Made by a program: the position numbers and the translations under genes
Assembly (NCBI GenBank): GCA_000182565.2
Contig: KQ257452.1
Length of the DNA: 64,000 nucleotides
Reading direction: 5' to 3' (one strand)
From: Spizellomyces punctatus DAOM BR117
Lineage: Eukaryota
In this document: one piece after another, positions 354 through 3,355 of the stretch
How the letters are laid out: the number at the start of each line of letters is the position of its first letter
Numbering within the stretch: the stretch's first letter is position 1
Notes under the pieces: generated by a model
The model's input: only the letters and a program-made list of their open reading frames with translations
Told to the model about the DNA's origin: nothing
Database searches by the model: none

Positions 354-2201
354 TTATCCATCGCCATCAAAGGCCTGTCGACCTCGCGCTCTACTCTGTA
401 CTTGGTCCACTTTGGCGACATATGTAATATACTCGTTCATGTCATATCCTTCACGCACAAACCATCGGACATCATCCACACATTCGGGATACGTTCGTTC
501 AAACAAGTCTTTCAGCATGAAACCGCACTTTTCTGAAAAGCGTTGCATAGGAAGATTGATGCGGCGCGTCAAGAGCCAGACGTAGCGGATGGGTGTAAAC
601 GATTCGCTTTGAATGCGATTCAAGGTTCGTAAGATGAGTTCCTGAGCAATACCTTGGGATTGCACAGATTGCATGACGCCAACTTCCGCCAAGTAGATAG
701 AGTTGGTTGGCAGTTGGTGTTCAGAAGCGCAGACGCCCACGTAGCATCGCTCTGTTGGATTGCATTGTGGTTGCTGTTGTGGTGATTGGCTGGCCTTGCC
801 TGCCCAGACATTGTACTTTTGTGGATCGGCGGCATACGTCCCAGTATCTGATGGTGGGCTGTTGAGCCCCGAGTCTTCGCTTGATGTATCTTGGCTGTCA
901 AACAGAACATGTCGCGTACTCTTTCCCTTCTTTCGTGGAGGATTAATGATCCACCCTGCCGCACAGTACCATATCGACGTGCTTGTCGGTGTAGCTGGGC
1001 GCAGAATATCGGCGAGGGCGTCTGACCAGGCAGCTCGCAAAAAGTTGTTTAAACCAACAAAGGTGGCGAATGCTGGAACTTCGTGCATAACTGATGGCAT
1101 ACATCCAAAAGGTTCAATTTTTGGTGTTCAAAGCCAATAAATGCCTATAAATCTCACCTTTGGGAGTGGCATACAAGGCTAGAAAAGCATCATGATAGAC
1201 TTCTGACAAAAGCTCAAGTTGATCCAGTGGCAAATCCGCTCCCGTATAGACTTGGTAGTGAAGTCTCGCATTCCCGACGCGAACATGGGATAACAGACAT
1301 GTTTTGCGATTTTTCGGGAAGAGTTCAATCGGTCGATATTTCCCCGTCCGATACTATGAATGCCTGTCATGAGGGTCATGCATTCATTCGCAAAAGAAGT
1401 CATTCAAGGCCCCACCTTTCCACCACCTCCACAACTTCCACAGAATCCATACTTTCCCTTACAGTTGAGACAGACTGCCTCTACCGTAATCTCCAACTCC
1501 ACTTCATCATCTGCCAGCGTCCGCACACGTCCACACCCCAACATTTCCTTGCAAATCTCACAATCAACCATTTGGCTCCGTCCGCGCTTTCTACCAATGC
1601 TTGGATATAAAGATCGGTTCATCGTAGGTCCGCCATGACTCGCATTTGCACCGGCGCACTGAGCACACAGAATCTCAATCACAAGCCCTGAATCTAGTAA
1701 TGTTGTGTCTCCTCGGATATTGAAGAGCGCCAACGTGTTCCCGCACTCCAGACATATCCCAGGTTGTTCGACCGTTTTCTTTCGTCTGGCTTCTCTTTTG
1801 CGAGGTGGACATGGTACAGGCGGTGGCGTCAATTGCTTTTGCTTTGATTCTTGTCGTTGTGATGGGACAGAGGGAGTGAGTGGCGTGGGTGGAGTAAAGG
1901 GCGGGACAAGTTGGAGTGTCTGAGGGAAGGAAAAGGTCTGGGGCGGTACAGTTTGGAGTGCTGCGGCTGTCCAGTCAGGAAATGTGGCTTCCCAGAATGG
2001 ATCTGGAACACTGGAAACGTCTAGTGTATGTGTGTAGAGTTGTGTTGTCGGTAGTGTGTAGGGTGCAGTTTGATATTCTGCTTGAATGACAGCTGGGGAG
2101 TACGTCGGGTGCGCTTGAAGCTCAGCAGATGCATTTTCGGCTTCTTGCTGGACTTCCAATAAAAAGTTTGCAATAAAGTCTTGGTCGTCTAGGGGTTGCA
2201 T
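354..2201 (-). CDS. Multi-CxxC zinc-finger protein fused to a C-terminal GNAT acetyltransferase (at least 3 exons)
   Basis: ORFs 1404..2324 and 354..1100 join in frame via introns 1415-1354 and 1157-1091 (both GT-AG) and a middle exon YRTGKYRPIELFPKNRKTCLLSHVRVG...LYATPK. GNAT motif A AEVGVMQSVQSQGIAQELI and motif B NLPMQRFSEKCGF. Start ATG at 2201 assumed (upstream in-frame ATGs to 2324). Confidence 0.75.
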
Positions 2202-2413
2202 GATGCGCTTGATCGCTCTCGCCCTGGACGGGGAGGAAGAAAGAATTGGGCATGCCAAAAAAGCTGAGTTTTCCAAGCAGCAGAACACTTCGGGCGGACC
2301 TGACTTGTGCTGCGCCATAGTCATTTTACTTGTTTTGGATTAAGCACAATGACTGTGCCATCCGTAGAGTTGTTCCACCCAACAGACGCTTCCATTTCGA
2401 ACGGCCAAAAGCC

Positions 2414-3355
2414 ATGCTCATCAAAACGTCCCATGTCGACCTTGCGACATCAACCACCCCCATCCGTGTATTTGTGACTGAGCCGAACCTTCCACAGTAT
2501 CCAAAGGCGAGATTCCCTGCCATTGTCTGTTGGAGCGAGATATACCAAGTAACGGGGCCAGTGTCACGCTTAGCGTCCCAAATCGCATCTCAAGGCTACA
2601 TTGTCGCTTGCCCAAGCGTCTACCATGAATTTGAAGGACCCGAGCCATTAGCTTATGATGAAAAGGGCACAGATAGAGGGAACGAACTCAAGGTTACCAA
2701 AACCTTGGCTGCGTACGATGAGGATTCGCGAGTAGTTGTCGATTGGCTACTTGGTTTAGAAAGATGTACTGGGAGGGTGGGGAGTACAGGAATGTGTTTG
2801 GGCGGGCATTTAGCCTTCAGGGTGAGCTGAATGCATGGGCATGGAGTGCCTCGCGTACGCATCCCGTCATGAACTGACTTGCAGCCGTCCAGACTGCATT
2901 TGATTCACGCGTATCGTCAGCTGTATGCTTCTTTCCTACGGACATTCATAGCCACTCGCTTGGCCAAGGCAAGCAAGACGACTCGTTACAACGTGTGAAA
3001 GCAGGAGATTTGGGCCACGCTGAACTGCTCATGATTTTTGGAAAACAAGTATGTTCTAACATGTAAAGAGTGCGCTATGGATCTCGAGTCTTACTTGCTT
3101 TGACAGGACACGCATGTCCCACGTGCCGGCCGAGACCTTATCCGAGGCACCCTCGAAGACGCAAACGTCACAGTGAGCTGGTGTGAATTCCAGGCGCAAC
3201 ACGCATTCATTCGGGATACGTCGTCCAAGGGTCGATATGATGCGGCATTGACCTCGGTGTGCTTTCAGCAGATGATGGAGTTGTTTTATAGGACTCTGGT
3301 GGTAGATTTGGGAATTAAAGTTGGTGGGAGTGCCAAGTTGGAGCATGTATGTTAA
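2414..3355 (+). CDS. Dienelactone hydrolase family (alpha/beta hydrolase), 3 exons
   Basis: SEIYQVTGP, nucleophile elbow GMCLGGHLAFR, QDTHVP and C-terminal AQHAFIRD..SKGRYD; introns near 2822-2892 and 3049-3105. Confidence 0.9.

Follow-up and report, generated by a model that had tools for sequence, protein, structure and literature searches.

The 64,000-nucleotide stretch of Spizellomyces punctatus DAOM BR117 analyzed here (contig KQ257452.1 of NCBI GenBank assembly GCA_000182565.2; "the window") carries on its minus strand, between positions 354 and 2,201, the gene SPPG_02234. This is a real, expressed three-exon gene, and its product of 572 amino acids (aa) joins a Cys-rich module with three putative zinc sites to an acetyltransferase fold of the GNAT superfamily. 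The zinc module is previously undescribed, having neither a Pfam match nor a solved relative among those searched, and the family to which the protein belongs is sizeable, uncharacterized and eukaryotic, with named members so far in chytrid fungi alone. As to function, we tentatively favor the reading, at somewhat short of an even chance, that SPPG_02234 is a nuclear protein acetyltransferase targeted by its basic zinc module; this rests on sequence patterns and predicted structure.

A spliced gene of three exons

An earlier reading of the DNA, made from the letters alone (hereafter the sequence-only reading), had proposed that two in-phase introns, 1415-1354 and 1157-1091, fuse two open reading frames (ORFs) through a small exon. 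The product joined in this way turned out to be, letter for letter, the NCBI protein SPPG_02234 (entry P0004; 100% identity and coverage), found in a search with exon 1 that gave two matches among 1758 candidates. The gene is laid out as follows.

1416..2201, minus strand: exon 1, aa 1-262, equal to residues 1-262 of P0004; ATG at 2201-2199
1354..1415, minus strand: intron 1, 62 nucleotides, GT..AG, phase 0, read off the sequence
1158..1353, minus strand: exon 2, 196 nucleotides, aa 263-327 and the first base of V328; ends in phase 1
1091..1157, minus strand: intron 2, 67 nucleotides, GTGAGA..CAG, phase 1
354..1090, minus strand: exon 3, the rest of V328 to G572; stop TAA at 356-354

Exon 1 ends in phase 0 directly after GGGGK, and the codon of V328 is split by intron 2 as G/TT, so that translations of 262, 65 and 244 residues yield the joined product. 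The list of stop-to-stop ORFs holds a 311-codon frame (1404-2339) that contains the ATG at 2201 and closes three codons past the GT, a 79-codon frame (1114-1353) that opens directly behind an AG, and a 257-codon frame (354-1127) that is entered past the second GT..AG interval; reading through intron 1 leads to a stop after three codons. UniRef holds the identical 572-aa protein as well, labeled "N-acetyltransferase domain-containing protein". The gene is thus already public, merely unstudied, and its earlier description as hidden and unrecognized has to be dropped. In the literature searched, no paper was found on the locus tag SPPG_02234, on the motifs of the module or on the family.

It is very improbable that the spliced model is wrong, i.e., that the locus holds two genes or a pseudogene and the joined protein is an artefact common to gene predictors. 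Such an artefact could be argued from the RNA run, which yielded no junction-spanning reads, and from the named relatives, which are all predictions too. Against this stands the sequence across the intron 1 junction, GGGGK/YRTGKYRP, which is invariant in all 16 sequences of an alignment of relatives (A1), while the intron 2 junction, ATPK/VM.EVP (ATPK/VMHEVP in P0004), is contiguous and common to the closest relatives. Both junctions lie within high-confidence parts of an AlphaFold2 model, where residues 250-380 are predicted to fold as a single unit (mean predicted local distance difference test, pLDDT, of 84-97 in 10-residue blocks). The Cys site that starts in exon 1 is completed by C281 and H285 of exon 2, and the GNAT fold opens in exon 2 and closes in exon 3. 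In the relative P0015, an ORF call, a 19-aa insert (V...Q) sits exactly between GGGGK and YRTGKYRP; it has the look of an in-frame intron left unspliced at the phase-0 site of intron 1, and the position of the intron would therefore be conserved.

Transcription was assessed from one raw RNA-Seq run, of which about 6 in 100 were read. The 238 aligned reads had a single orientation throughout the bins of exon 3, with a depth of 64.6 at 300-370, 45 at 371-441, 29 at 442-512, falling to about 0 from 726 on. Upstream of 726 the depth was scattered and below 1, with an opposite-orientation trace (0.24-0.45) solely at 2075-2216. This profile fits a 3′-biased library from a transcript of the minus strand with its end near 300-350, and it is consistent with a short 3′ untranslated region and a polyadenylation region near 300-350. 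At the depth peak just downstream of the stop (300-370), many reads were aligned in part, with short loose ends. The X1 contigs run through both introns and are hence genomic. Searching the window with P0004 by tblastn for paralogues returned the gene itself only (next E-values 1.1 and 3.6), and one S. punctatus protein was returned by each of two protein homologue searches.

A duplicated Cys4 unit and a third putative zinc site

The pattern of candidate ligands suggests three zinc sites in the module, two of the Cys4 and one of the C2CH type.

1626..1790, minus strand: zinc repeat 1, aa 138-192, C150-x2-C153-x25-C179-x2-C182; pLDDT above 90 in context
1434..1595, minus strand: zinc repeat 2, aa 203-256, RKR and then C214-x2-C217-x26-C244-x2-C247
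1273..1442, minus strand: third putative zinc site with the invariant loop, aa 254-289; interrupted by intron 1

The third site has the pattern C254-x2-C257-x23-C281-x3-H285 and is arranged around the loop GGGGKxRTGK[YW]RP, downstream of which ..LF...RKTC281-LS-H285 is followed by VR-VG. The motifs that the sequence-only reading had picked out are all present in the protein: PPRKREARRKK, CLEC, CAQC, CEIC, CLNC, FCGSCGGGGKYRTGKYRPIELF, RKTCLLSH and QSQGIA.

Conservation was measured in a family alignment (A2) of 68 sequences, which share 20-48% identity with SPPG_02234, apart from one 90% orthologue. C179, C182, C244, C247, C254 and C257 are invariant, as are G258, G260, G261, R264, G266 and R269. 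At least 90% conservation was found for C150, C153, C214, C217, C281, H285, G259 and K267 and, in addition, for L273, F274, R278, T280, L283 and R287. Taken as a set, the 12 metal-ligand candidates (the ten Cys of the five CxxC pairs and, at 99% each, C281 and H285) are 99-100% conserved, and a 16-residue loop is nearly invariant as well. Sites one and two are related to each other: comparison of aa 138-192 with aa 203-256 by hhalign gave a probability of 92.4% and an E-value of 5.3e-7 over 47 columns, pairing RKK with RKR as well as both CxxC pairs. They are thus tandem copies of one unit, which opens with a basic triplet. The module is also basic overall, with 13 positions in aa 136-290 that are Lys or Arg in at least 70% of the sequences and a net charge that is positive in 65 of the 68 (median +7; +10 in SPPG_02234). 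The Gly-rich GGGGK segment was considered as a Walker-A motif and ruled out, as the residue after K is Y, T, S, H or Q and the first Gly position is E or S.

Sequence profiles do not place this module in a known class, and the fold searches brought no significant match. Pfam scans, in which the HMMER filters drop most matches above an E-value of about 0.1, returned no family for exons 1 and 2 at E-values up to 10, and the four families reported for P0004 all fall within aa 401-518, outside the Cys module. PHD, RING and GATA profiles were without a match at the same threshold; in the orthologue P0005, the sole match to the Cys module was DZR (E-value 1.6). For the fold searches, a model of aa 134-262 (pLDDT 81.3) was used, which leaves out aa 263-290 and shows the order strand-strand-helix-strand-helix in unit 1 and strand-strand-strand-helix in unit 2. 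Compared with 48,161 representative chains by VIA-align, it gave 27 chains at Z of at least 2 and none at Z of at least 5, the best being 3.7; the best Foldseek E-values were 0.37 against the PDB and 0.55 against BFVD. That the sequence-only reading could not assign the module to the PHD, RING or GATA class agrees with the profile searches.

One resemblance may serve as a lead. The C-terminal domain of papillomavirus E7 (E7C) is a dimerization domain of about 50 residues with the pattern CXXC-X29-CXXC (PMC5278158). E7 CR3/E7C and zinc repeat 1 have in common the length of about 50 residues, the two CxxC pairs and the order strand-strand-helix-strand-helix. In VIA-align, zinc repeat 1 superposed on the E7 chains 6iwd_B (Z 2.9, root-mean-square deviation 2.3, 44 of 49 residues) and 2b9d_B (Z 2.5, root-mean-square deviation 2.7, 46 of 52 residues), and E7 models in BFVD appeared in Foldseek at an E-value of 2.0, on ranks 41 and 46. 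However, the spacing in E7 (x29; PMC5278158) differs from the x25 and x26 of SPPG_02234, the sequences show no similarity, and the Z-scores lie below the level that separates relatives from chance. We therefore regard the likeness of the modeled Cys4 unit to E7 as a topological resemblance only; a bolder side reading would place the unit, as a cellular relative, with the E6/E7 zinc fold of papillomaviruses.

A GNAT fold with an intact-looking acetyl-CoA loop

The C-terminal half belongs to the GNAT superfamily, as indicated jointly by profile, predicted fold and P-loop.

369..1269, minus strand: GNAT fold, aa 291-568, from Pfam PF00583, VIA-align and Foldseek; spans intron 2
645..662, minus strand: P-loop Q471-S-Q-G-I-A476, between strand 458-466 and helix 472-490
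768..911, minus strand: disordered Ser/Pro/Gln-rich insertion, aa 388-435, inside the GNAT fold; pLDDT below 50

PF00583 (Acetyltransf_1) matched aa 445-518 of P0004 at 21.5 bits, a marginal pass of the cut-off of 20.7, and exon 3 alone at 23.4 bits; weaker matches on P0004 were two further GNAT models and ATP-gua_PtransN (E-value 0.18). In the AlphaFold2 model, the pLDDT over this domain is above 90. Residues 286-555 of the model aligned by VIA-align to 3fix_A with Z 15.1 and a root-mean-square deviation of 3.0 over 160 residues, 214 of the 48,161 representative chains reached Z of at least 8, and the 50 entries shown were all titled as GNAT-related. Foldseek gave 28 matches at E-values up to 0.001 (best 1.3e-5), and the Atlas structure rows for SPPG_02234 were all GNAT. 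The claim of a GNAT domain with the acetyl-CoA motif QSQGIA is thus supported. Sequence searches of the PDB gave only rows at E-values of 0.05-0.65 with exon 3 alone and nothing at E-values up to 1 with the family profile (A2). The GNAT P-loop consensus is given as Gln/Arg-x-x-Gly-x-Gly/Ala between strand 4 and helix 3 (PMC4964394), and the loop of SPPG_02234 fits it with Q471, G474 and A476.

Among solved chains, the N-acetyltransferase Ta0374 of Thermoplasma acidophilum (3fix/3f0a) comes nearest, with the fold common to both over aa 286-555. Identity to solved GNATs in the structural alignments is just 8-18%, and SPPG_02234 differs from them by the 48-residue disordered insert, by a C-terminal helix and by the fused zinc module of 150 aa, which occurs in none of the solved GNATs listed. 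N-terminal, histone, polyamine and aminoglycoside acetyltransferases all lie within 3-4 Z units among the structural neighbors and no substrate class is prominent; since a difference of up to 1 Z unit counts as a tie, the ranking of folds does not point to a substrate.

A basic stretch precedes the insert at 927-944 (region of aa 377-382, PRKKGK), behind strand 366-376. The Lys/Arg frequencies in the 68 sequences are 72% at R380, 88% at K382 and 78% at K384, and this pattern could mark a second patch resembling a nuclear localization signal or an element of the substrate groove.

The N-terminal region and the model as a whole

Ahead of the zinc module, the protein carries two further elements.

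1803..2201, minus strand: N-terminal region, aa 1-133, with a predicted helix 6-26 and then a disordered, acidic Pro/Thr/Gln-rich stretch
1776..1802, minus strand: basic patch RKREARRKK, aa 134-142, directly ahead of strand 1 of zinc repeat 1

The N-terminal 133 aa have a net charge of -10, the pLDDT is below 50 over aa 26-100, and the region is not alignable across the family. The basic patch is Lys or Arg in 74% of the 68 sequences at position 140 and in 90% at position 141, and in the profile comparison it aligns with the RKR ahead of repeat 2. The AlphaFold2 model, for which A2 was the input, has a mean pLDDT of 75.5 and a predicted TM score (pTM) of 0.67. Averaged in 10-residue blocks, the pLDDT is 93-98 over 141-180, 80-97 over 211-380 and 91-98 over 441-560, and the model is disordered at 26-100, 197-204 and 388-435.

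Phyletic range of the family

A near-length search with aa 140-572 recovered 16 proteins among 3670 candidates, and the 15 with species names are all from chytrids, of the genera Spizellomyces, Phlyctochytrium, Rhizophlyctis, Thoreauomyces, Powellomyces, Fimicolochytrium, Borealophlyctis, Dinochytrium, Blyttiomyces and Cladochytrium. The five species looked up belong to the Spizellomycetales, Rhizophlyctidales, Chytridiales and Cladochytriales and share the same architecture. Searching 1.84 billion cluster representatives with aa 134-262 (phmmer) returned 93 proteins at E-values of at most 0.001, 22 of them at most 1e-10; these matches are clusters at 50% identity, and 77 clusters without species names thereby add to the named chytrid homologues. 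We assume that the relatives P0020-P0100 are eukaryotic and probably fungal. With homologues in four chytrid orders and in the 77 further clusters at 50% identity, the family can no longer be called lineage-specific, as the sequence-only reading had supposed. A profile search with A2 gave at least ten proteins, all chytrid, among the matches listed, and an Atlas search with the relative P0079 found no cluster above 0.80.

Among 97 stored relatives, 81 carry the motif C..CG.GG...G.[YFW]R, and in 72 of these it lies at least 100 residues from the N-terminus with at least 230 residues following, i.e., the same architecture, in which the zinc module precedes about 250-400 aa. Pfam scans of 39 relatives assigned no family to 36 at E-values up to 0.01 and gave two weak GNAT matches.

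Two side observations concern individual matches. In the relative P0042 (1430 aa), the zinc-GNAT unit is followed toward the C-terminus by an SNF2-related domain (29.9 bits), and this protein is either a real fusion with a chromatin remodeller or two neighboring genes merged by the predictor. Atlas rows 11 and 14 are bacterial and archaeal GNAT clusters with PF06906 (DUF1272), at a language-model score of 0.87-0.88, where 0.9 is the level above which a match exceeds a mere lead; the Pfam scans of SPPG_02234 gave no match to DUF1272.

A proposed zinc-module-targeted acetyltransferase and its alternatives

The combination of an acidic N-terminus, a basic and conserved zinc module and an enzyme fold with an intact-looking acetyl-CoA site leads us to favor a zinc-module-targeted acetyltransferase. 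The positively charged module would attach the protein to a polyanion, with nuclear DNA or chromatin as the likeliest target; the GNAT domain, whose predicted fold packs directly behind the Gly-rich basic loop of the third site and whose P-loop is intact in the S. punctatus clade, would then acetylate a nearby protein substrate; and the acidic N-terminus could act in activation or recruitment. From these features we infer the binding of three zinc ions, the nuclear location, the binding of nucleic acid, the catalytic activity and the substrate.

Several observations weigh against this reading. The spliced joints on which the protein depends are not listed in the small, 3′-biased RNA set of 238 reads. 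The AlphaFold2 models contain no metal, the zinc sites being read from the ligand pattern, and no catalytic base or acid was identified. RNA, phospholipid, inositol phosphate or an acidic protein would be equally plausible targets of a basic zinc module. Furthermore, sequence conservation is concentrated in the zinc module and not in the GNAT part, and a canonical P-loop is found in only 8 of the 68 aligned members, the other 60 having unrelated residues in its place. Since conservation is centered on the zinc module, the function common to the whole family may not need acetyl transfer.

The last two points are at the heart of the main alternative, which we consider rather unlikely, namely a zinc-module transcription factor or adaptor in which the GNAT fold is a non-catalytic scaffold or ligand sensor (a pseudo-acetyltransferase). 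The function conserved in the family would then lie with the zinc module and its invariant loop. Besides the missing P-loop consensus in 60 of 68 members, it can draw on the distribution of the 36 positions at which one residue occurs in at least 80% of the sequences: 32 lie within aa 150-289, with the conservation peak at aa 254-289, and the remaining four, including A324, P326 and G517 next to K515, in the GNAT part. The failure of Pfam to find a family in 36 of 39 relatives points the same way, and a review mentions a GNAT domain that is inactive and has no Gln/Arg in its P-loop (PMC4964394). In SPPG_02234 itself, however, the P-loop is canonical, as it is in its whole clade (8 of 8), and a full-length GNAT fold is kept in 72 of the 81 motif-bearing proteins. 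The same review also reports active GNATs with atypical P-loops (PMC4964394), so that a missing consensus in other members is no proof that they are inactive. The eight P-loop members, from Spizellomyces, Phlyctochytrium arcticum, Thoreauomyces, Powellomyces, Fimicolochytrium and Rhizophlyctis, fall into one clade when the core columns are analyzed with FastTree; the tree was midpoint-rooted and, lacking a true root, does not decide between retention and gain of the loop. Judged from the alignment, the consensus may have been lost repeatedly, or the cofactor site may be atypical.

We hold it to be unlikely that SPPG_02234 is an acetyltransferase with a substrate other than chromatin, such as RNA or tRNA, the N-terminus of a protein or a small molecule (a polyamine, for instance), with the zinc module used for RNA binding, substrate capture or oligomerization. 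Its structural neighbors do include N-terminal acetyltransferases (4ua3, Z 12.6; 4xnh, 12.7; 4kvm, 12.4) and polyamine acetyltransferases (5k9n, 11.5; 3qb8, 11.3), without preference for histone enzymes; the basic Gly-rich loop could contact RNA phosphates; and zinc unit 1 has the element order of the E7 C-terminal domain, to which PMC5278158 assigns dimerization. Yet the fold ranking, with rows within 1 Z unit tied, is silent on the substrate, and the scores of the E7 match are low (Z 2.9 and 2.5; E-value 2.0 in BFVD). A long low-complexity N-terminus together with basic triplets would, in our view, be more typical of nuclear regulators.

A more far-reaching version of the zinc-module-targeted acetyltransferase can be formulated for the whole family. 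The tandem Cys4 units and the C2CH knuckle, together with its invariant GGGGKxRTGK[YW]RP loop, might constitute a new nucleic-acid-binding zinc domain, the targeting arm of widespread fungal "DNA-binding acetyltransferases" that would be active in the Spizellomyces/Rhizophlyctis clade and pseudo-enzymes elsewhere. We rate this as speculative and rather doubtful.

Comparison with known zinc-finger acetyltransferases

Zinc elements occur next to acetyltransferase folds in several known proteins, including Eco1/ESCO (a C2H2 finger with a GNAT core), MYST (a C2HC finger) and yeast Spt10 (GNAT with C2H2). SPPG_02234 shares with them the general design of a zinc element beside an acetyltransferase fold in a presumed nuclear protein. 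The Eco1/ESCO and MYST families have Pfam models, and neither their acetyltransferase nor their finger profiles matched P0004 at E-values up to 10. In contrast to all three, SPPG_02234 has three putative sites, a tandem duplication and the invariant loop GGGGKxRTGK[YW]RP, a combination that, to our knowledge, is found in none of Eco1/ESCO, MYST or Spt10. The plant protein IDM1, with which the sequence-only reading had compared the architecture when it proposed a nuclear reader-writer, combines a PHD finger with an acetyltransferase; here the likeness is conceptual, a Cys-rich module and an acetyltransferase in one chain. SPPG_02234 has no PHD match.

A divergent neighboring gene

On the plus strand, a divergent neighbor with at least two exons occupies 2321-3355 and matches the dienelactone hydrolase family of Pfam, the frame at 2321-2830 scoring 46.1 bits and that at 3104-3355 scoring 20.7 bits. 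About 200 bp separate this hydrolase-like gene from the ATG of SPPG_02234, and the promoter region may therefore be common to both.

Implications

The zinc module is among the most strongly conserved features observed here, whereas the catalytic half has an ordinary enzyme fold. The transcription-factor repertoire of early-diverging fungi is poorly known, and should the module indeed be a DNA- or chromatin-binding domain, it would define a new class of regulators for these organisms. S. punctatus is genetically tractable, and the members with intact and with degenerate P-loops would form a natural series for asking what the GNAT fold contributes.

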